Of a stretch of DNA of 39,037 nt, positions 121 through 25,673 are shown piece after piece. Made by a program: the position numbers and the translations under genes. The DNA is from a virus, in the UHGV virus genome UHGV-2079062. One strand, written 5' to 3'. The notes beneath the pieces were generated by a model, which ran no database searches, was not told the origin of the DNA, and was given only the letters and a program-made list of their open reading frames with translations. The stretch's first letter is position 1, and every line of letters starts with the position of its first letter.

Positions 121-1659
121 TTATTCAGTCGGCAGTGCTACGCGCCAGGGGAGCAGTTCGCCGACCCGGTTTATCGGCCAGTCGGCTATGACGTCAAGGA
201 CATAGCGGAGGTAGCTTTCTGGCTCCACTCCGTTCAGTTTGCACGTCCCGATCAGGCTGTACAGCAGCGCTCCCCGCTCTCCTCCATGATCCGAACCGAA
301 GAACAGGTAGTTTTTGCGGCCCAGACTGACCATCCGCAACGCATTTTCAGCGATGTTATTGTCCGCCTCAGCCCAGCCATCATCTGCATAGTACGTCAGC
401 GCCGGCCACTGGTTCAGGGCGTATGCGAACGCTTTCGCCAGTTCTGAGTGTCGCGACAGGGTTTTCATCTTTTCACGCAGCCAGCTTTCCAGGGATTTCA
501 GCAGCGGTTTCGTTTTCAACTGACGTTCGGCAAGGCGCTGCTCCGCCGTCATTCCCCTTATCTCTGCCTCGATGGCGTACAGTTCGCCGATCCGTTTCAG
601 CGCTTCCTCCGTCAGGGCTGACGGGGTGCGAACGTGCACATCGTGGATTTTACGGCGGGCGTGAGCCCAACAGGCGGCTTCCGTTATCCGGCCATCCCGG
701 TACAGCTCGTTGAACCCGGCGTATGCATCCGCCTGCAGTACACCACTGAACCCCGCAAGATGGGTCTGCGGATGGATGCCTTTTCTGTCCGGGCTGTAAG
801 CGAACCACACCGCCGGCGCCAGCGTTGACCCGGCGTTACGGTCGTCACGAACGTAGGTCCATAACCGCCCGGTCTTCGTTTTCTTATTGCCTGGCAACAG
901 CACCGGGACAGGCGTGTCATCAGCATGGAGCTTACCGTCAGTCAGCACATAGTCCTGAAGCGCTTCTTCCAGCGGTGACAGTAGCCGGCAGCATGCATCC
1001 ACCCAGCCCGACAGCAGTGAACGACTCAGCTCCACGCCCTGGCGGCCGTACATTTCAGACTGGCGGTACAGCGGGGTGTGCTCTGCATACTTTGAGATCA
1101 GCACGCGGGCCAGCAGCCCCGGTCCTGCGATACCCCGCTCGATGGGCCGTGAAGGCGCGGGGGCCTGCACGATGGCATCGCACTGAGTACAGGCATGCTT
1201 TTCACGTACAGTCCGGATAACCCGGAAGGCGCTGCGCATCAGCTCCAGCTGTTCGGCGGCATCCTCACCCAGATAGCTCAGCGAGCCTCCACATTCCGGG
1301 CAGCATGACGCTGCCGGCAGCAGCCGTTTTTCATCGCGGGGGAGTGATTCGGGGAACGGTTTGCGGGTGCGGGTTTGACGCAGCGGGCGCTGCACGGCCG
1401 GGTCGTCAACCCGACCGGTAAGGGTATCACTTTCTTTCTGAAGTGCCTTCAGGTCAGCTTCCATCTGTGCGATACGACGGGAGACTTTTTCCGAGCGGCT
1501 GCCGAAGTTCATCCGGCGCAGCTTATCCAGCTGTGCCTGCAGATGGTCTATTTCGCGTTCACGCTCGTTCAGCTTTTCCTGCAGGGCACGGTTCAGCGCC
1601 TCCTGTTCGGCAAGGAGACGTTTCAGTGCATTGATATCGTCAGGAAGTGAGCTGCTCAT
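121..1659 (-). CDS. IS66-family transposase (TnpC/Orf3)
   Basis: 512-aa ORF with N-terminal coiled-coil/leucine-zipper region, CxxC...CxxC zinc motif and conserved IS66 transposase core, recognised from translation. Confidence 0.9.
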
Positions 1660-6649: not shown

Positions 6650-7728
6650 CAGAACGGGTCCTCCTGTACTCTGGCTTTTTTCTTTTTCCGCGCGCCGGGG
6701 GCTTCGGGTTCAGGCAGATAAGCATCAGGTGGGCCGACACGGATTTCCGTCAGAGTGCCGTTCTGGTCCTGAGTAAACGTGACTTCCGAAACAAGCAGTT
6801 CGGTATTGTCGAAACCACAGACCGGATCAAAGACAATCACCCGCTGGTTGGGCTGCCACAGCGTACCATTACCCTGTCGCCAGCCCTGCACCACATAGGT
6901 GGTTTCATCCGTCCGCGCCGCCCGTTGTCGGGCTTCAAAGTCCGCACGGGCAATACAGCCTGCCCCCGTAGCCTGCCCTGTCTGCCTGATATACATCGGA
7001 CGGTAACGGGCAATAAATGCGTCCTCTGTGCGGGCCCGCAGCGCGGTGGTGGTGGCCTCACCGAAATCATCGTCGTTTCCGGCACGCTGCCCCGCCACCT
7101 GGTAAACAGAAAACCGCTCCCGGATACTCTTCTCCGTATCGCAGGAAAGGATGTTTTCCCCGAGTACCAGCGCAGTATGTGCCCGCGTTGAGCCAATACC
7201 GCCAATCACCAGCCTGCCGTGCGGGTCGTCGTAAGCCAGTGCCTGCTGCTGACCGAGTATTTTGTTGATTACCTCAATCACCGTTTCACCGTAATCAGGC
7301 TGGACATCAGGAATAACACCCGACGGCGCACCGTTGTTCACCACCTCAATGCCGAAAGGCGCAGCAAGCGCCTGCGCAATCTGTACCAGCGATCGTCCGT
7401 TAAACTGTGTCGGTTCGGCTGCACAGTCAATCAGGTCAGCGGTCAGACTGCGTCCGGCAATACCGGTGCTGACCGAACGGGCATCGTAACGAACGGGCGT
7501 CGCCTCCACCCAGCCGGTGATCACCAGCTCATCACCAATCAGCACCTCCACTTTTGAACCGTTTTTAATGCGCGGCTGAAGCGTGGTAATACCCTCATCT
7601 CCCGGCCACTGGCGGGTGATCTCCACACTGAAATCCCGCGCCAGCCGTTCAATACCGGCACCGATGCGCACCGATGTCCAGCCATTCCACTCCCGGCCAT
7701 TTACCCGTAGCGTGACATTGTCGTTCAT
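6649..7728 (-). CDS. baseplate hub protein (Mu gp44 / P-like)
   Basis: 359-aa ORF downstream of the DNA circulation gene; synteny with Mu P. Confidence 0.6.
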   Translation of the reverse strand: MNDNVTLRVNGREWNGWTSVRIGAGIERLARDFSVEITRQWPGDEGITTLQPRIKNGSKVEVLIGDELVITGWVEATPVRYDARSVSTGIAGRSLTADLIDCAAEPTQFNGRSLVQIAQALAAPFGIEVVNNGAPSGVIPDVQPDYGETVIEVINKILGQQQALAYDDPHGRLVIGGIGSTRAHTALVLGENILSCDTEKSIRERFSVYQVAGQRAGNDDDFGEATTTALRARTEDAFIARYRPMYIRQTGQATGAGCIARADFEARQRAARTDETTYVVQGWRQGNGTLWQPNQRVIVFDPVCGFDNTELLVSEVTFTQDQNGTLTEIRVGPPDAYLPEPEAPGARKKKKARVQEDPF

Positions 7729-9053
7729 TGCACTGGCACCTTCAGAGGGATCACCGGCACAAAGCCGGGATGCGTAATGGCATTACGCCGGATAATGTCC
7801 GCATCACGCGCCGCGTTATCAAACCAGGTCGCCGCCAGCACCAGCGCGGGTAAAACCTCATCCGGCGTGCGCTGAATGATCCGTGCAGACTGTTCAAGGC
7901 GCGTGTTGATATCCGCATTCAGATCTGCTTTCACCCGGCGCAGCGCCAGAAACAGCGCATCACTGGTTGTACGGGACAACTCCTTATCAATTGCCGTATT
8001 CAGTGTGTCGCGAATGTCAGTCAGTTCTTCCCACGTCGGCAGGTCAACCGTGCTTTTCACCGCCGGAGCATTGTTCAGTGCCGGATGCGTGACGGAAGGC
8101 CAGTCAGTGCTCTGCGCGGGTGTTGTTGCCTGCCCCACTGCGGCATTCTGCATCACCGCGGAAGTTGTTGGCGCAGGCAATCGGGTGACGGCATACGCCG
8201 CTTCGCTGATTGCGGTCGTACGAAGGATGCTGGCAACCACGTTACGCTGCTGCGTCGCCGTGGCGGTGGTTTTACTGTCCGTTTTCCAGACGCCGCGCGG
8301 TTGCAGATCGCTGCCGAGGCTGACACCGGAAAGCGTTTTGATCATGGTGACCAGGTCGCTGGCGTTACCATAAAGGCGTTTCCCGGTACGCCACATTTTC
8401 TGCACCTGCTCAACGAAATTTTTGCCTGACGATGGTGGCGGCAGAAGTACCGAGATATCCCCCTGCAACAGCCTGGCGGCATCCGATACGGCAGAATCCA
8501 CCACTTTCATCGCATCAGAAACATACCCAAGCATTGTGCTGGCATTACCGATAACGTCGTTCTGCACAAAATCCGCCACGCCATCGATACTGAAACCGCT
8601 GAAGCTGTCACTGATGCAGTCATCCAGTGCAGAACAGGATGACATCAGCGTCTGCGCCGTCGCCACGCCTGATGTGGGGTAAGAGAGATCTCCCGCTTCG
8701 ACAAACTTCAGGTCAAAGCGGACAATACGCCCTTCACTCTTCGATGTGCTGACCCGAACTTCCCCGTCAACACAGACTTTCAGCTCACCGTATGTCGGGT
8801 GGACAAGCGTGCCGGGACCGGGTTTATTCAGCGCGTCAATCAGGCGATCGCGCTGGTCAAAGCAGTCATCTCCCACCACATAAGCCGTGATGGACGGGCG
8901 GAAAGTGACTTTTCCCAGATCTTCGGTATAGGGTTTGTCGCGGTTCGGATATTCGTGTGTTTCCACACGACGGCCGGTTCCCGCACTTTCTTCTTCAACC
9001 TTAAACGGCACACCTCGAAATGACGCATCCTGAAGCCTGTCTTTCCACGTCAT
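7725..9053 (-). CDS. DNA circulation protein (Mu gp43 / N-like)
   Basis: About 442-aa ORF; ATG at 9053 preceded by GGAG; the ORF track extends to a GTG at 9059. Position after tape measure region matches Mu N. Confidence 0.65.
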   Translation of the reverse strand: MTWKDRLQDASFRGVPFKVEEESAGTGRRVETHEYPNRDKPYTEDLGKVTFRPSITAYVVGDDCFDQRDRLIDALNKPGPGTLVHPTYGELKVCVDGEVRVSTSKSEGRIVRFDLKFVEAGDLSYPTSGVATAQTLMSSCSALDDCISDSFSGFSIDGVADFVQNDVIGNASTMLGYVSDAMKVVDSAVSDAARLLQGDISVLLPPPSSGKNFVEQVQKMWRTGKRLYGNASDLVTMIKTLSGVSLGSDLQPRGVWKTDSKTTATATQQRNVVASILRTTAISEAAYAVTRLPAPTTSAVMQNAAVGQATTPAQSTDWPSVTHPALNNAPAVKSTVDLPTWEELTDIRDTLNTAIDKELSRTTSDALFLALRRVKADLNADINTRLEQSARIIQRTPDEVLPALVLAATWFDNAARDADIIRRNAITHPGFVPVIPLKVPVQ

Positions 9054-9063
9054 ATACACTCCG

Positions 9064-9094
9064 AAAATAAAAAAGCCACCTATTAGAAGGTGGC
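9064..9094 (-). terminator. rho-independent terminator downstream of the tail-module moron
   Basis: Minus-strand stem GCCACC/GGTGGC (9075..9080 / 9089..9094) followed by a T-rich run (9064..9074). Confidence 0.55.
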
Positions 9095-9114
9095 CTTGTA
9101 ATGAATTTTATTAA

Positions 9115-9645
9115 TTAGCGAGTCAGAAACAACGAATCTTTATACTTTTGCTGTTGTTCATTTAAATACTTAGCTGTTTCATCGCTGGCAAATGGAAATA
9201 TTACCGTATTTTTAGGCATGGTAATTTCTTTTTTGTCCAGCGTCAGAGTAAACATAGGAACATACTGAGCAGAGTAACGCACCGCAGAAACGAGCTCTAG
9301 TTTAGACTCTTCAATAACACTTAAATTATCCAGGCTAACTTTCTCTTCATCTTTTTTCTTTGACGCATTTAAAGTTTTTATTACTTTATTTAATTTCTCC
9401 TGAAAATCCTCCTTAAAGTTTTCAGGATTGCCGTCGACAACAAGAATCTGTTCACCCTGATTATCTGGAAAAATAATCTTTGCACTTATCAATTTATTTT
9501 CTTTATAAACATCACCAAGTTTTATGGCTCCTCCAGATAACTGAATAATATGTTCATCTTTAAAGGAGATGTTGCCAGAGATTATGAGAGATGAAAAAAT
9601 AGCCGCTGCTCCAAGAATTACACTTGCTGTGATATAGCCTTTCAT
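9115..9645 (-). CDS. hypothetical secreted or membrane-anchored protein (moron inserted in tail module)
   Basis: 176-aa ORF in a markedly AT-rich segment; N-terminal hydrophobic signal/anchor (MKGYITASVILGAAAIFSSLIISG); lysine-rich; no counterpart in Mu-type tail synteny; flanked by its own promoter-like and terminator sequences. Confidence 0.6.
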   Translation of the reverse strand: MKGYITASVILGAAAIFSSLIISGNISFKDEHIIQLSGGAIKLGDVYKENKLISAKIIFPDNQGEQILVVDGNPENFKEDFQEKLNKVIKTLNASKKKDEEKVSLDNLSVIEESKLELVSAVRYSAQYVPMFTLTLDKKEITMPKNTVIFPFASDETAKYLNEQQQKYKDSLFLTR

Positions 9646-9680
9646 TTTTCGCCTATTAACATTTTTCTAAATGTGCATTA

Positions 9681-9708
9681 ATTCTATCACTCTATTTATG
9701 ACTTACAA
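9681..9708 (-). promoter_or_regulatory. candidate sigma70 promoter for the moron (TTGTAA-N16-TAGAAT)
   Basis: Minus-strand -35 TTGTAA (9708..9703) and -10 TAGAAT (9686..9681), about 35 nt upstream of the moron ATG; by eye only. Confidence 0.35.
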
Positions 9709-9736
9709 CCAGCAATACATGTGAGGGGAATCCTGG

Positions 9737-11569
9737 CTACCAAAATCGGGTATAGCCAACATCGTGATTTATATCAATGCCACTGGAGCGTGTTTCCGTA
9801 ACCCGCATACCTGGTGGCATATTTATAAATGATACCTTGATCTCACCATCAACTTTTGGCGCGGTAGCTTTATTAATCATGAAGGGATTCGAGCCTGTGG
9901 CATCGGAGGCGTTGTTTGCCTGAGCCGGATCCACCGCCGGATAAGGCGTGTATCCCCGTGCCGGTATTCCCGTCCCATAAGCATCATAAGCACCCGCGCC
10001 CCACTGCGCCGAGTTAATGGTATCGACCGTGTCACCGGAACTGTCGGTAAACCATTCAATAATCGGCTTCAGCTTATCCCACATATCCTGAAACCACTTA
10101 ACAACCGGTCCCCAGTTATTGATCACCATCCCCAGCGGCGACCAGGCAAAAACTTTCTTAAGGAGTTCCCAGCCAGCCTCAAAATAAGGACCAATGGTTT
10201 CCCAGAGCTTCTTGAAATAAGGTCCGACAACATCCCAGTTAGTGATAATTAATCCCGCAGCCAGGGCTATCGCCGTCGCAATCATGCCAATCGGCGTCAT
10301 CGACATGATCCTGCTGACAATGCTGATGGCACTGCCCACGCCCATCAATCCCAGTTTCAGAATCGCAAGACCGGCAGCAAGCCCGACGACGCCGCGAATA
10401 ACCCGGGGATTTTCATCCGCAAACTTCGTGAATTTCTCCCCCAACTCCCCCAGCCACTGCGTGATGTTCTTAGCGTCACCAGAAAATGCGCCGCCAATAG
10501 CCGCAAGGCCGTTAGTTGCGGTCCCCGTCATTGCCTCCCACAGGTTGGACAGCGTACCAAGCTGAGCCTGAACACGTTTATTCAGGCTGGCCTGTTTATT
10601 CATCTTCTGCTGGATCTGATCGTAGCCATCCTTTCCTTTATCGATTAGTGCATTGACCACCTGAAGGGTTTCGGCATCATCACCAAATATTGCCTTAAGT
10701 ACACCGGTTCGCTTAACGTCGGTCAGTTTTCGCAGCTTTGCCAGTTGCCTGAACATGTTATCAAGACCGCCAAAACTCCCTTTGCCATCAGTAAAATCGA
10801 GCTGTACCCCGAGTTTCTGGCGGGCCATGATTTTATTGACGTCCCTGATTTTCTTAACGCTTAATCCGGACTGGATAACTTTTCGCAGGGCATTACCTGC
10901 CGACTCCCCGTTCATCCCCATCTGATCCATCATGACACTGATGGGGGCAAGACTCTGTGCAGCCTGAAGACCGTCCTTATTCACCATCTTCAGAACAGAG
11001 CTGGTTTTAGTGAAGAATGACAGCATGTTGGTATCGTCCACGCCCAGATAAAACGCCTTCTGAATTGTGTCGAACAGCCCCATCATGTCTTCTGAGGCCG
11101 TTCCGGTAGCATCCTGCATCTTTGCGGCAAACTCAGCAGCCGCTTCCGGTGTTTTTTTCAGTTGTACCGCAAGATAAGCTGTCGCTTTACCCACACCACC
11201 AAGAATGTTTTCTGCCGGGATCCCCTGACGCACCAGCATCTGCATCATGTTCTGGAAATCAGCCGTTGTACCGGGTAGCTGGTTACCCAGGCCAATAGCC
11301 AGTTTATTGATGTCCTGAAAGCTCTTTCCAACCTCGCCGTTCGCATCCATCATGGCGACTTTCAGCCCGGTGGCGGCGTTTTCCTGATCAGCATAAGATT
11401 TCAGGGAAAGCGTCAGACCCGCTGCCAGTCCGCCACCAAGCGCCAGCCCACCCTGTGACGCTTCTTCCGCCTGGCGTTTAAATCCCCGGATTTTCTTTTG
11501 CATTTTCGACAGCGCGGGAGAAAGCCTGTCGACACCGGTGATCAACGCCTTAAGCTCAAATTCAGCCAT
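9737..11569 (-). CDS. phage tail tape measure protein
   Basis: 610-aa ORF with Ala/Gly-rich helical N-terminus and hydrophobic central segments; located after the tail assembly chaperone. Confidence 0.85.
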   Translation of the reverse strand: MAEFELKALITGVDRLSPALSKMQKKIRGFKRQAEEASQGGLALGGGLAAGLTLSLKSYADQENAATGLKVAMMDANGEVGKSFQDINKLAIGLGNQLPGTTADFQNMMQMLVRQGIPAENILGGVGKATAYLAVQLKKTPEAAAEFAAKMQDATGTASEDMMGLFDTIQKAFYLGVDDTNMLSFFTKTSSVLKMVNKDGLQAAQSLAPISVMMDQMGMNGESAGNALRKVIQSGLSVKKIRDVNKIMARQKLGVQLDFTDGKGSFGGLDNMFRQLAKLRKLTDVKRTGVLKAIFGDDAETLQVVNALIDKGKDGYDQIQQKMNKQASLNKRVQAQLGTLSNLWEAMTGTATNGLAAIGGAFSGDAKNITQWLGELGEKFTKFADENPRVIRGVVGLAAGLAILKLGLMGVGSAISIVSRIMSMTPIGMIATAIALAAGLIITNWDVVGPYFKKLWETIGPYFEAGWELLKKVFAWSPLGMVINNWGPVVKWFQDMWDKLKPIIEWFTDSSGDTVDTINSAQWGAGAYDAYGTGIPARGYTPYPAVDPAQANNASDATGSNPFMINKATAPKVDGEIKVSFINMPPGMRVTETRSSGIDINHDVGYTRFW

Positions 11570-11710
11570 GTGTGCGTTTCTCCTGCTCTATCCTGTTTGC
11601 CTGACTGACCAGCAAGGGAATTTCACTGATCGGCATATTCAGCAATTCGAAGGGATTAATGCGCCAGTAGCTGGCGCAGTCAAAGAAGCGATCAGTGAGG
11701 TATTCAGCCG

Positions 11711-11980
11711 TCAGGCCTGGAGGAAAAAACCAGCCACAAGCCACGCCGCTGCATTCAGGTCTGCCGGAGACATCTGGTCGACAGAGCTTTGCGGCACTTT
11801 CGCCAGCCGCACAATGTATTTCGACACCACATGCGCCAGAAGTCTGACGGACTCATCCTGATTCATCTGGTAGGGATACCCCAGCTCGCGGACATCCTTC
11901 CCGGTGGGTTCATCAAACTCCAGTACGGAGAGTGTCTCACCATGAGCGATAATCGGTTTCTTTAACTCAAGCTCTTTCAT
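11711..11980 (-). CDS. phage tail assembly chaperone (G-like); -1 frame extension runs to 11562
   Basis: 89-aa ORF between tube and tape measure genes; an overlapping -1 frame ORF (11562..11744) begins at a TTTTTTC slippery heptamer (forward 11723..11729) and ends at the tape measure start. Confidence 0.6.
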   Translation of the reverse strand: MKELELKKPIIAHGETLSVLEFDEPTGKDVRELGYPYQMNQDESVRLLAHVVSKYIVRLAKVPQSSVDQMSPADLNAAAWLVAGFFLQA

Positions 11981-12336
11981 TACTGGTAATCCCCTTCTTC
12001 ACCGTGGAACTCAAGATCAACCGTGCCTTCTTCGGCATTATGGTTCGCTTCTCCGTGCAGCCAGGCGGACGACAATACATAGACCTGACCGTTCGCCAGC
12101 TCGGCAGTGATGGTCATCTCATCAGACGAGGTGATTTTGCTCACCGGAAAATTCTTCGGCACCTTGAAGGTCCCTTTGACATAAGGCGCACGGTGAGTTT
12201 CCTTGCGGTCCACTGAACCGTCCAGGCCGATGATGTCATCATTGACCGTCCTGTTCATGGGCACCTCAATGCCGCCGGTCAGCGATAGCTGCTGACCGTC
12301 AATTTTGAAATAACAGGTTCCCCCGATACGGGCCAT
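11980..12336 (-). CDS. phage major tail tube protein (Mu gp40-like)
   Basis: 118-aa ORF immediately downstream of the sheath gene with ATGA overlap. Confidence 0.75.
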   Translation of the reverse strand: MARIGGTCYFKIDGQQLSLTGGIEVPMNRTVNDDIIGLDGSVDRKETHRAPYVKGTFKVPKNFPVSKITSSDEMTITAELANGQVYVLSSAWLHGEANHNAEEGTVDLEFHGEEGDYQ

Positions 12337-13832
12337 TATGCAGACTCCTCTGAATACTGAAGACGGAACTGGTTAACCACGGCAAAAACACGCAACTGGT
12401 TAACATAGTCAGGCGGGAACAGCGTGTTCAGGCGGTTCGGATCGCTGGCATCACGCTCCACAACCAGGTACTGCTTAAACAGTTCGTAGTTTTCCACGAT
12501 CCCCGCACGCTCAAGCTGACGGTAGGTTGCCAGCAGTTCCCCTTTGATTACCGCCGGGGTGACAATCGCCTGACCGGGACCAAAGCGGGTACCGTCGCTG
12601 GCAAGCTTGTGACGCCCGTACTTACTGGTAATGACGGATTTCAGTTTGCGCAGTACATACGCACTGGTATGCAGCGTCTCGCTGTCGAGGTAGCTGTTAT
12701 CCGCAACCCCGTAAGCATTTTTCCTGTACGTGGTGACATCACGCTGAATGCGCAGCACCCCGCTTTCGACATACGCCGTTGCCACGCCATGAGACAGCAG
12801 GGTCTGCTGCTCGGTCATCGTGAACCGTTTCCCCTTCGGCGCAGGCAGCATACCCACCAGCTCACCGGTCTGCGTGGGACGTGCCGGATCGTTGCGGATA
12901 AACACCGCTGCGCGGGCGGTACGGCTTGCCGCCAGCTCGTCGGCAGGCGTCTGGGTGTCTTTTTCGTACCCCGCCAGGGTAATGTGCTGCTGGTTAAACT
13001 GGTCACCTGCGGTCACCAGTTCTGACAGCGTGCCGATCTTTGCCGTATACACATGACCATACAGCTGACGCGCATAGCTCCAGCGACCGCTGGTATCGTT
13101 CATCTCGGTCACCAGCGTGTTAACGGAGGCCGTGTCGTTGAACGGCAGGCCGATATAATCAAACGGCTCATCCGCCATTGCAGCCACCGCGCCGGTGAGA
13201 ACAGGAGCGCCCGTTCCGGCGTTCCCCGTCGCCACGGCAATCTGTACGCCCGCTGGCAGCACTTCGCCCCCACCGAAGCCGTAGTAATTGAGGCTGACAG
13301 GAATTTCATTCCCGCAAAGCCCCTTATGGCGAGCGGTCAGTGTAACCACACCAGCCGAAGATGAGGCCGTAAACGGCAGGGCCGGAACGGCATTGATGGC
13401 ATCTTTGATACTGCTGGCAATCGTCGCGACGTTATCGCCGTTGGTCACCGGTGCCTGCACGCGGGTACGTCCCACATAAACATTCACCGTGCCGGTTTCG
13501 GTTGCTGCCCCGGTCACCGTCAGCGTAACTGTTGCCGCCGCGCCTGTGGATTCAGGAACGGCAATCACATACAGCTCGCCAAACGGGTCAGTCTGGCGAT
13601 AAGCCTCGACCATACGCGCCAGCTGACTTCCCGCACCACAAATCTGGCGTGCATAGTCTGCCGACGGCATCAGTACCAGACTGTTGGCAACAATCTCTGC
13701 ACCGTTATTGGCATGACCAATCAGCAGCGATGCTCCGCTGTCCTGTGCAGTATTCGCCGCCTGGTTATCCATTTCCGCATAAAACAACGGAACCAGCGTA
13801 TTCGACGGAATGGTGTTAAAGCTTATCGTCAT
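12336..13832 (-). CDS. phage tail sheath protein (Mu L / gp39-like)
   Basis: 498-aa ORF, size and position typical of contractile tail sheath. Confidence 0.85.
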   Translation of the reverse strand: MTISFNTIPSNTLVPLFYAEMDNQAANTAQDSGASLLIGHANNGAEIVANSLVLMPSADYARQICGAGSQLARMVEAYRQTDPFGELYVIAVPESTGAAATVTLTVTGAATETGTVNVYVGRTRVQAPVTNGDNVATIASSIKDAINAVPALPFTASSSAGVVTLTARHKGLCGNEIPVSLNYYGFGGGEVLPAGVQIAVATGNAGTGAPVLTGAVAAMADEPFDYIGLPFNDTASVNTLVTEMNDTSGRWSYARQLYGHVYTAKIGTLSELVTAGDQFNQQHITLAGYEKDTQTPADELAASRTARAAVFIRNDPARPTQTGELVGMLPAPKGKRFTMTEQQTLLSHGVATAYVESGVLRIQRDVTTYRKNAYGVADNSYLDSETLHTSAYVLRKLKSVITSKYGRHKLASDGTRFGPGQAIVTPAVIKGELLATYRQLERAGIVENYELFKQYLVVERDASDPNRLNTLFPPDYVNQLRVFAVVNQFRLQYSEESA

Positions 13833-24014: not shown

Positions 24015-24575
24015 AACCCCACCTCGCAGACAAAGCGGGTGTAAATTGAGGGAATACTACGAAACGTAACAGACTCGGAGTCAGTGAATAACTCAGGTAT
24101 TGGGTTATCAGCTAATATCGAGACTCAAAAAATGGAAAAACCCGCTCGACGGCGGGTTTAAGCTGTGTGACGAAGTAACCACTCTTAACAGCATAACCAA
24201 TTTTTTACGTACGTAAACCACTAAATGATATTTGCGAGAATGCTACCGAGTATTGAAAACACCACTACAAATACATAAGCAAATCCCAACAAATAATTTC
24301 CAGTGTTATTTTTAGCCGGTTTAAATTGAACCTTCAAATTATAGAGCACTTATAAATAACAGCCGTTAATATAAATTGGCTAATAGATTTATTTTTATTC
24401 AGCAAAGAGCCATGAATAGGATTCGATAGAAAAAAGTTCAGATAAAAATAGAGATCTACTTCACAAATCAAACGAGAAACCAAAACTTACATCTTGAAAT
24501 AATCACATTGATTAGATGAATATTTATCGCGCAGTGACATCATTTTTTAATAATAGTTCAAAAAAAGGGCTCACG

Positions 24576-25673
24576 ATGAAAAAATTAACAGTGGCAATTT
24601 CTGCTGTAGCTGCATCAGTACTGATGGCGATGTCTGCTCAGGCAGCTGAAATTTATAATAAAGACAGTAACAAGCTGGATCTGTACGGGAAAGTTAATGC
24701 TAAGCACTACTTCTCCTCTAATGATGCAGATGATGGTGATACTACTTATGCCCGTCTTGGCTTCAAAGGTGAAACCCAAATCAACGATCAACTGACTGGT
24801 TTCGGTCAGTGGGAATATGAATTCAAAGGCAACCGCGCTGAATCTCAAGGTTCCTCCAAAGATAAAACCCGTCTTGCCTTCGCTGGCCTGAAATTCGGTG
24901 ACTACGGCTCCATCGATTACGGCCGTAACTACGGTGTAGCATACGACATCGGTGCGTGGACTGACGTCCTGCCAGAATTCGGTGGTGACACTTGGACTCA
25001 AACCGACGTGTTCATGACTCAACGTGCAACTGGTGTTGCAACCTATCGTAACAACGACTTCTTTGGTCTGGTTGATGGTCTGAACTTTGCTGCTCAGTAC
25101 CAAGGCAAAAACGATCGTAGCGATTTCGATAACTACACTGAAGGTAACGGTGATGGCTTCGGTTTCTCTGCTACCTATGAATACGAAGGATTCGGTATCG
25201 GTGCAACTTATGCGAAATCTGATCGTACCGACACTCAAGTTAATGCAGGGAAAGTTCTTCCTGAAGTATTTGCTTCCGGTAAAAATGCAGAAGTTTGGGC
25301 CGCAGGTCTGAAATATGACGCTAACAACATTTACCTGGCCACTACCTATTCTGAAACCCAGAATATGACTGTATTTGCTGATCACTTCGTTGCTAATAAA
25401 GCCCAAAACTTCGAAGCTGTTGCACAATATCAGTTCGATTTCGGTCTGCGTCCGTCCGTTGCTTACCTGCAATCTAAAGGTAAGGATCTTGGAGTATGGG
25501 GCGATCAGGACTTAGTCAAATATGTTGATGTAGGTGCAACCTATTACTTCAACAAAAATATGTCTACTTTCGTTGATTACAAAATCAACCTGCTTGACAA
25601 AAATGACTTCACTAAAGCACTCGGTGTAAGCACTGATGACATCGTTGCTGTAGGTCTGGTTTACCAGTTCTAA
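24576..25673 (+). CDS. nmpC: outer membrane porin, OmpC/OmpF/PhoE family (prophage NmpC/Lc-type), apparently intact
   Basis: 365-aa ORF from [23 protein letters not shown] signal peptide to C-terminal ...VYQF; located between Q and the lysis genes on the opposite strand as in DLP12/PA-2. Track ORF 24516 start is an upstream in-frame extension. Confidence 0.9.

Follow-up and report, generated by a model that had tools for sequence, protein, structure and literature searches.

A probable programmed -1 ribosomal frameshift within the tail chaperone gene of a prophage of the SfV/SfII type

The production of two chaperone forms through a -1 slip is a well-known phage device, with G/GT of lambda and E/E+E' of P2 as examples, and the G/GT-type class of tail assembly chaperone frameshifts reportedly has its source in the work of Xu, Hendrix and Duda in 2004. 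The question raised by the locus described here is whether a short open frame located between a chaperone gene and a tape measure gene is translated by means of such a slip. The window, by which we mean the whole 39,037-nucleotide stretch analysed (virus genome UHGV-2079062), is an SfV/SfII-type prophage with a Mu-like contractile tail module, and the features concerned are the following.

11980..12336, minus strand: tail tube gene, 118 aa (PF10618, E=2.4e-33)
11711..11980, minus strand: zero-frame tail assembly chaperone ORF (equivalent of 'G' or P2 E), 89 aa, 9.9 kDa, ATG to TGA
11723..11729, minus strand: slippery heptamer T_TTT_TTC, in which the last base of Gly84 GGT is X, followed by Phe85 TTT and Phe86 TTC
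11562..11723, minus strand: -1 frame extension (equivalent of 'T' or P2 E'), 53 codons (PPGLTAEY...RTHG) plus the TGA at 11562-11564
11656..11683, minus strand: stem-loop within the extension, 39-44 nt 3' of the heptamer, a candidate element
9737..11569, minus strand: tape measure gene, 610 aa (PF10145, E=1.3e-26)

The gene order is tube (PF10618), PF10109 chaperone together with a -1 ORF at 11562-11744, and tape measure (PF10145); two overlapping ORFs lie between tube and tape measure, which is the arrangement that the G/GT-type class demands. The TAA stop of the tube gene and the ATG of the chaperone have one base in common (TAATG at the junction), and the chaperone ORF stops at the TGA at 11711-11713. 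Its 89-aa product matches PF10109 (Phage_TAC_7), the family to which P2 E and Mu gp41 belong, with E=2.4e-15 and a score of 56.7 bits (cut-off 25), covering profile positions 2-78 of 79; the same family is matched by all 17 chaperone family members examined. In the PHROG classification the ORF is assigned to phrog_166, 'tail protein', and the extension to phrog_32181 (function unknown; E=3e-41). Solved structures yielded no homologue by sequence, and NCBIfam holds no model for the chaperone part or for the extension part.

The first-pass annotation of this DNA had placed an 89-aa chaperone ORF at 11711..11980 with the heptamer TTTTTTC at 11723..11729 near its 3' end; all of these coordinates are borne out, and the heptamer stands in correct X_XXY_YYZ phase, at codons 84-86 of 89, with the zero-frame stop 9 nt further on. 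Its estimate of a fusion of about 139 aa ending at the tape measure start also holds: the predicted product has 86 + 53 = 139 aa (15.8 kDa, versus 9.9 kDa for the short form), with the predicted junction peptide ...WLVAGFFPPGLTAEYLTDR, and its TGA at 11562-11564 overlaps the tape-measure ATG (11567-11569) in ATGGCTGA, the extension running 8 nt into the tape measure gene. The statement that the -1 frame opens exactly at the heptamer was wrong, as this frame is stop-free from 123 nt upstream of it and position 11744 is merely its first GTG. The extension is reached solely via the shift.

Because slippery heptamers are common, a single sequence is weak evidence for recoding. In the window TTTTTTY occurs 30 times against 19 expected, and 16 of the 171 program-made ORFs carry an in-phase slippery heptamer within their last 20 codons; five of the 171 combine a heptamer with a long -1 extension, the other four being shadow ORFs that lie within real genes or antisense to them. 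The signal exceeds chance only because of its position and its conservation among relatives. We therefore rely on a set of 23 distinct relatives from Enterobacterales, Burkholderia and Derxia, with identities between 93% and about 35% and including phages SfIV, ST64B, phiP27, AH07 and BgVeeders33 and a Derxia genome. T_TTT_TTY is found at the equal aligned position and phase in 23/23 of them, as far as a betaproteobacterial relative at 38% identity, and the comparison with homologous chaperone pairs proposed by the first-pass annotation decides in favour of its reading. This conservation is seen at the nucleotide level: at synonymous sites the heptamer codons are GGT in 20/20 and TTT in 23/23, the last codon being TTC in 19 and TTT in 4, while all other conserved residues use 2-5 synonymous codons each in the same relatives, and synonymous variation is 0.06 at the slip site versus a mean of 0.45. 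The position of the zero-frame stop varies among the relatives (9, 24, 27, 30, 42 or 63 nt past the heptamer), and the T run is T6 in the window and T7 in ST64B, phiP27, SfIV and L019.

The -1 frame is open for 50-59 codons in all relatives and stops either right at the tape-measure start or no more than a few bases from it, with the 8-nt overlap present in 13 of the 19 sequences analysed, the window included. Its product shares the motif FDCAxYWRINPxELL...QANRI among relatives, and against close relatives pN/pS is 0.05-0.2 (pS 0.4-0.9), values by which the extension is under purifying selection as a protein. We also looked for homologues in which one uninterrupted ORF spans both parts and the slippery site is missing, an observation that the first-pass annotation had named as speaking against a frameshift. 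The only apparent cases (P0001-P0006) are singleton metagenome/Logan contigs with scrambled junctions (GFSSSLT, GFFLQARRLNTSL), and we read their continuity as the result of obvious indel errors, not as natural fusions.

Could heptamer and open frame be coincidental, or a relic, with the 89-aa protein as sole product? The abundance of heptamers just described would allow it, and inspection of eight public records, seven from phages and one a RefSeq E. coli record, showed the short form only and no annotated fusion. Such a reading would nevertheless leave a stretch of about 140 nt that is non-coding yet evolves like a protein, with the heptamer retained out to 38% identity and, together with an intact extension, in 80/80 near-identical viral contigs (25 different sequences at the DNA level); it is effectively refuted by the conservation of the extension, its pN/pS and the fixed codons of the slip site. 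Translation of the -1 ORF (11562-11744) as a small gene of its own, giving 60 aa from the GTG at 11744, is very hard to credit for other reasons. That GTG does precede the heptamer by 15 nt in the window, phage vB_EcoM-689R6 (ON470584) annotates a separate hypothetical protein, and the extension has its own PHROG family, phrog_32181; however, the GTG sits within the chaperone coding sequence, no start codon (ATG/GTG/TTG) precedes the conserved extension in 14/23 loci, three loci having none in the entire frame, and no Shine-Dalgarno sequence was found before candidate starts of the -1 frame in any of the 23. Independent initiation would moreover give no reason for the heptamer to be conserved at its synonymous sites.

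Slippage of the transcribing enzyme is harder to set aside, and still improbable. Here RNA polymerase would drop one U (or add two) on the T6 run, and a minority of mRNAs in the fused frame would be translated normally. The site is a homopolymer, of T6 here and T7 in the four relatives named above, its nucleotide-level conservation is compatible with either mechanism, and a downstream ribosomal stimulator is absent. What argues for the ribosome is that the motif is invariably in X_XXY_YYZ phase and its Z is a pyrimidine, on which tRNA-Phe can re-pair, and that the P2 annotation gives a translational frameshift at the homologous site. For slippage to be efficient, the E. coli polymerase usually needs runs of about 8-9 or more, and a run of 6-7 is short for this enzyme.

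We thus favour, with a probability of about 0.88 and on the strength of sequence comparison, the view that ribosomes undergo a programmed -1 frameshift within the chaperone gene of this prophage type, the G/GT-type reading of the first-pass annotation being supported by the chaperone family, the conserved heptamer, the selection on the extension and the P2 layout. Translation would start at ATG 11980, coupled to the stop of the tube gene, and the majority of ribosomes would read 89 codons and stop at the TGA at 11713-11711, giving the short chaperone. A minority would slip while the P site holds Phe85 UUU and the A site Phe86 UUC, the two tRNA-Phe(GAA) molecules re-pairing one base back on UUU-UUU, and would continue with CCU CCA GGC... 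for 53 codons, ending 8 nt within the tape-measure gene to yield the 139-aa fusion. By analogy with lambda gpG/gpGT and P2 E/E+E', the common N-terminal domain would form a coat on the tape measure protein and the C-terminal domain made only by frameshifting would recruit the tube protein, and the frameshift would set a fixed, low long:short ratio. The sequences themselves show the signal, its phase, its conservation at the nucleotide level and the selection on the -1 frame as protein, and we infer from there the ribosomal nature of the slip, its efficiency and the binding partners of both domains; full-text literature searches for this phage group yielded no proteomic or reporter data on the 139-aa product.

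Measurements in E. coli rank U_UU.U_UU.C and U_UU.U_UU.U with the efficient -1 heptamers, at 0.12% when bare and 0.9-7.6% with stimulators (PMC4066793). The first-pass annotation had suggested looking for a downstream stimulatory structure, and none conserved was found beside the heptamer by folding or by alignment fold: the 43 nt after it fold no better than shuffles (z=+0.31), folding of 100 nt past it gave nothing significant at the usual 5-9 nt spacing, and the alignment fold of 18 relatives showed no conserved structure at canonical spacing, only a distal 4-bp core. A significant hairpin adjoins the heptamer in Derxia alone (z=-2.86). The site hence lacks the conserved structure of a classical stimulated -1 frameshift, as defined by a hairpin or pseudoknot 5-9 nt further on or an upstream Shine-Dalgarno sequence, and P2 is likewise reported without such a stimulatory structure (PMC3091744). 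With no stimulator found, and with reporter values of only about 0.1% for a bare heptamer, frameshifting here could be very inefficient. Pro-Pro-Gly directly after the shift was considered as a functional stall motif and rejected, being conserved within the closest subgroup only.

The distal stem-loop at 11656-11683 has a dG of -14.2 kcal/mol (z=-3.89), and its stem codons are free of synonymous changes in 11 diverged relatives; its covariation does not exceed that of the shuffle control. It is rather doubtful that it acts as a functional RNA, be it as a long-spacer frameshift modulator or in controlling the stability or translation of the T/tape-measure message, and the alternative is that it is a mere by-product of the conserved C-A-S-Y-W-R peptide. 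A role through ribosome collision was discarded, since by our spacing estimate the queued ribosome would already be several nt beyond the heptamer, and since zero-frame ribosomes terminate before this hairpin.

Among known systems the closest parallel is with E/E+E' of P2, where a -1 shift at TTTTTTG in the FETUD tail operon is annotated in NC_001895, and the two layouts agree nearly to the residue. The sizes are similar (91/142 aa for P2 E and E+E', 89/139 aa here), the codon context is GGT TTT TTN in both (GGT TTT TTG in P2), P2 E' also ends 8 nt inside the tape-measure gene T, the PF10109 match stops at the slip site in both proteins, and both phages have contractile tails. An hhalign comparison of the family with P2 E+E' is collinear across the junction, with E=3.4e-4. 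The overall similarity is remote, being not significant by plain BLASTP (E=0.65), and that of the extension to P2 E' is weak, with an hhalign probability of 38%. The two differ in Z, which is C or T here and G in P2, and in PF06528 (Phage_P2_GpE), matched by P2 E+E' with 76 bits but not by the extension here, for which no match was found at E<=1 in the window and none in 17 family members. The flanking tail genes also are not P2-like but Mu-like, namely the tube PF10618 and the DNA-circulation PF07157, and public records of the SfV group name the flanking genes Mup39, 40 and 42.

With Mu the locus shares the gene order of sheath L, tube M, chaperone, tape measure and DNA-circulation N. Mu gp41 gives a marginal PF10109 match of 24.7 bits, just under the 25-bit cut-off, and the peptide of its +1/-2 frame is weakly similar to the extension here (hhalign E=0.0026). 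On the other hand, Mu gp41 has 144 aa and is mainly PF23746, its second frame is +1/-2 instead of -1, and T_TTT_TTY is absent from the corresponding place; a -2 frameshift is reported for Mu gp41 in Xu et al. 2004, as that work is cited in PMC2628397 and PMC5009743. The likeness to gpG/gpGT of lambda is one of layout: the site has the major tail (tube) gene on one side and the tape measure gene on the other, and a short form and a C-terminally extended form have a common N-terminus, the short form being abundant and the long one rare in lambda, at a ratio of about 30:1 set by frameshift efficiency (PMC5009743). The lambda heptamer is G_GGA_AAG, on which Gly/Lys tRNAs slip in place of Phe/Phe here, there is no detectable sequence similarity, and the lambda tail is non-contractile.

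This prophage type is present in 918 of 5,426 complete E. coli genomes (about 17%), and also in the Shigella serotype-converting phages SfI, SfII, SfIV and SfV, plus ST64B and phiP27. In every public record inspected the chaperone ends at 89-111 aa, and in most of them 85-140 nt before the tape measure gene are left unannotated. Among the 151 homologues found, no NCBI/UniRef protein covers the fused form, and the SfIV genome paper makes no mention of a frameshift or a chaperone. The locus adds one more ordinary, unannotated case to a known class of recoding; its value lies mainly in annotation and no new question is opened. A ribosomal-slippage CDS would give phrog_32181 a name and would supply a missing tail-assembly product that, by analogy, is probably essential. 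The combination of a Mu-like tail module with a P2-style -1 Phe-Phe slip, instead of the -2 shift of Mu, may also serve as a small data point on how a chaperone pair is kept while the mode of recoding changes.

The 89-aa tail assembly chaperone ORF (11711-11980, minus strand) matched PF10109 'Phage_TAC_7' (E=2.4e-15, profile positions 2-78 of 79), a family that takes its name from P2 E and Mu gp41, and occupies the following place among the late genes.

Late-gene order around the chaperone (all on the minus strand)
12336-13832, minus: sheath, first in the order
11980-12336, minus: tube (PF10618)
11711-11980, minus: 89-aa chaperone ORF, after the tube and before the tape measure
9737-11569, minus: tape measure (PF10145)
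9115-9645 (island 9060-9740), minus: AT-rich cargo ORF, between the tape measure and DNA-circulation genes
7725-9059, minus: DNA-circulation protein (PF07157), last in the order

Taken together, these tail genes form the SfV group's Mu-like module. Identity of the region to Escherichia phage vB_EcoM-689R6 and to Shigella phages SfII, SfI and SfV is 99-99.7%, and 918 of 5,426 complete E. coli genomes carry the identical 461 bases. Elsewhere the window carries genes for an HK97-type capsid, a terminase, a porin and an IS66 transposase, together with lambdoid early genes. The AT-rich island (9060-9740; GC 0.31-0.39 versus ~0.54 in adjoining genes) encodes a 176-aa protein with a hydrophobic N-terminus (9115-9645, minus strand), for which megablast of 50,697 phage records returned no match, despite the flanking tail DNA being ~99% identical to SfII/SfV; neither Pfam, NCBIfam nor PADLOC matched it, the sole match being phrog_5485, 'unknown function', and it has the look of an insertion into the tail operon, a moron or cargo gene. 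A Gram-negative porin gene (385 aa, 24516-25673, plus strand; PF00267, E=5.6e-157) between the late and early regions of the prophage is probably lysogenic-conversion cargo. The tail gene cluster has at its distal end a complete IS66-family transposase (512 aa, 121-1659, minus strand; PF03050, PF13817, PF13007, PF13005), which may interrupt the tail-fibre or conversion region and leave this prophage copy defective.

The first-pass annotation had proposed a programmed -1 ribosomal frameshift in the chaperone at a slippery TTTTTTC, and re-reading of the sequence bore out all its coordinates, including the heptamer at 11729-11723 (minus strand). The phase is the one required (Gly84 GGT, Phe85 TTT, Phe86 TTC, that is T_TTT_TTC), with the zero-frame TGA stop 9 nt 3' of the heptamer. 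Reading in the -1 frame from base 11723 gives PPGLTAEYLTDRFFDCASYWRINPFELLNMPISEIPLLVSQANRIEQEKRTHG, 53 codons, up to a TGA (11562-11564) within ATGGCTGA, 8 nt past the tape-measure ATG. The predicted products are thus 89 aa (9.9 kDa) and 139 aa (15.8 kDa), in agreement with the fused product of about 139 aa expected earlier. The -1 frame does not, as had been stated, open exactly at the heptamer: it is already open from 123 nt upstream, 11744 being simply its first GTG. The only catalogue entry for the extension is phrog_32181, 'unknown function'.

Taken from one sequence alone, the signal is not more than chance. The window contains 30 copies of TTTTTTY where 19 would be expected, and an in-phase X_XXY_YYZ falls within the last 20 codons of 16 of 171 mechanical ORFs. 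In five of these the -1 frame also runs on without a stop for 40 codons or more past the ORF's own stop; apart from the chaperone, these are four shadow ORFs that lie within the porin, recT, sheath and baseplate genes or antisense to them. Context and comparison therefore have to carry the case.

Relatives were gathered as 21 genome loci found with the chaperone profile plus five further phage records; with four duplicate loci set aside and the window counted, this left 23 distinct sequences, of amino acid identity from 93% down to ~35-38%. They include Buttiauxella, Citrobacter, Edwardsiella, Erwinia, Pantoea and Kosakonia, phages SfIV, ST64B, phiP27, AH07 and BgVeeders33, and the betaproteobacterium Derxia gummosa. 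This comparison with homologues, suggested in the first-pass annotation, came out in its favour: T_TTT_TTC or T_TTT_TTT is found in all 23 at the identical aligned position and phase. The position of the zero-frame stop varies (9, 24, 27, 30, 42 or 63 nt past the heptamer). Every relative has 50-59 open codons in the -1 frame, which in 13 of 19 sequences analysed stops precisely 8 nt into the tape-measure gene; in the +1 frame a stop usually follows after a few codons. In ST64B (locus L105, NC_004313) we found the site in sb15; a remark in the literature on ST64B may well concern another gene.

The extension is conserved as a protein, its motif FDCAxYWRINPxELL...QANRI being recognisable even in Derxia. 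In the -1 frame pN/pS is 0.05-0.2 against relatives with near-saturated synonymous sites (pS 0.4-0.9), and third codon positions take 64% of the differences among closer sequences. At the heptamer, the Gly codon is GGT in 20/20 (the remaining three sequences have a different residue there, its codon still ending in T), Phe85 is TTT in 23/23 and Phe86 is TTC in 19 and TTT in 4, while other conserved chaperone residues use 2-5 synonymous codons each. A sliding profile over 11 close relatives gave a synonymous difference of 0.06 at the heptamer and short overlap, and 0.05-0.17 where the extension's stop overlaps the tape-measure start, versus a mean of 0.45. Moreover, heptamer and intact 53-55-codon extension were present in 80/80 viral contigs (25 distinct DNA sequences) whose chaperone protein is identical to the window's.

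That the -1 ORF is translated from a start of its own, the reading annotated in ON470584, fails as an explanation: 14 of the 23 loci have no ATG, GTG or TTG ahead of the conserved extension domain, three lack a start codon in the entire -1 frame, and no candidate -1 start in the 23 loci is preceded by a Shine-Dalgarno sequence. Homologues with a single continuous ORF, named earlier as what would speak against the frameshift, were sought in the protein database, where only error-like contigs cover both frames. Each is a singleton contig, metagenomic or from Logan, whose scrambled junction is of the kind that indel errors produce, and none of the 151 matches was an NCBI/UniRef entry covering the extension. 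We give transcriptional slippage on the T6/T7 run a low rating, given how short the run is and that the motif is in tandem-slippage phase in every case.

In the predicted ribosomal frameshift, two tRNA-Phe (anticodon GAA) would slip together, from UUU-UUC to UUU-UUU. A systematic E. coli survey places H_HH.U_UU.Y heptamers among the efficient classes, with UUUUUUC giving 0.12% without stimulator, 0.89% when combined with the IS911 stimulator and 7.6% with that of IS3, and the P2 heptamer UUUUUUG 0.118%, 0.247% and 0.765%, respectively (PMC4066793). For P2, a frameshifting efficiency 2-3 times that of lambda (~1:30) is reported (PMC5009743). For the window chaperone we infer an efficiency of low-percent order. 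The downstream stimulatory structure that the first-pass annotation wished to see sought was not found adjacent to the heptamer in the window; the 43 nt 3' of it fold no better than shuffles (z=+0.31), and an alignment fold of the relatives revealed nothing conserved at 5-9 nt spacing. This agrees with P2 and its relatives, reported to have no such structure (PMC3091744). Strong hairpins starting 1-8 nt past the heptamer occur in three GC-rich relatives, Derxia's alone being significant against shuffles, and in none of the enterobacterial members.

Hairpins near the heptamer (L-numbers are relatives' loci; their own coordinates)
L019, 2750-2770: uncultured proteobacterium
L024, 2750-2790: Derxia, z=-2.86
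L108, 864-878: Burkholderia phage BgVeeders33

A more distal stem-loop lies inside the extension (11656-11683, minus strand; UUGAC-UGCGCCAG-CUA-CUGGCGCA-UUAA), 39-44 nt 3' of the heptamer (dG -14.2 kcal/mol, z=-3.89; 0/200 shuffles equally stable). Its stem codons TGC, GCC, TAC and CGC are free of synonymous change in 11 relatives, unlike the loop codon, which varies, and pairing is retained in 86% of cells across 18 sequences, in which covariation was not above the shuffle control; several distant relatives have the stem disrupted. The stem-loop may be an RNA element; alternatively, it may result from codon bias and conservation of the CASYWR peptide.

The closest known system is E/E+E' of P2 (NC_001895), whose annotated -1 site (GGT TTT TTG), products (91 and 142 aa) and E' end 8 nt inside gene T are almost identical to the window's figures; in both proteins the PF10109 match reaches the slip site. 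In hhalign (E=3.4e-4, probability 38%), the alignment of a profile of 17 fused sequences to P2 E+E' crosses the junction and continues into the extension; plain BLASTP against P2 was not significant, and 0/17 sequences matched PF06528, the P2 E' family, to which the extension does not belong. The flanking genes are also those of Mu, but Mu's chaperone, gp41 (144 aa; PF23746, with a marginal PF10109 match just under cut-off) has its second frame at +1/-2, in line with the -2 shift that passages in PMC2628397 and PMC5009743 attribute to Xu et al. 2004. Mu-like flanks together with a P2-like site indicate a Mu-like tail module carrying a predicted P2-style -1 Phe-Phe slip. SfIV (locus L107, NC_022749) displays a mosaic joint against window 11946-12400: its sheath and tube DNA are 97% identical, similarity stops ~35 nt into the chaperone gene, and its chaperone and tape measure are <50% identical to the window's (PMC3851460). 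Chaperone and tape measure were therefore swapped as one module, a joint exchange that fits a physical partnership between them.

In the records of SfV, SfII, SfIV, ST64B, phiP27, AH07 and one RefSeq E. coli genome, the short chaperone is the sole annotated form and 85-140 nt before the tape measure gene are left blank, while vB_EcoM-689R6 labels the -1 ORF a separate hypothetical protein; none of these inspected records has a joined CDS. BgVeeders33 labels the chaperone itself a hypothetical protein, no joined product for SfI was among the matches listed, and the SfIV genome paper mentions neither frameshift nor chaperone (PMC3851460). We class the predicted frameshift as a case, unannotated in the records inspected, of a thoroughly known kind of recoding; no surprise to the specialist, its assignment is of practical use for annotation.
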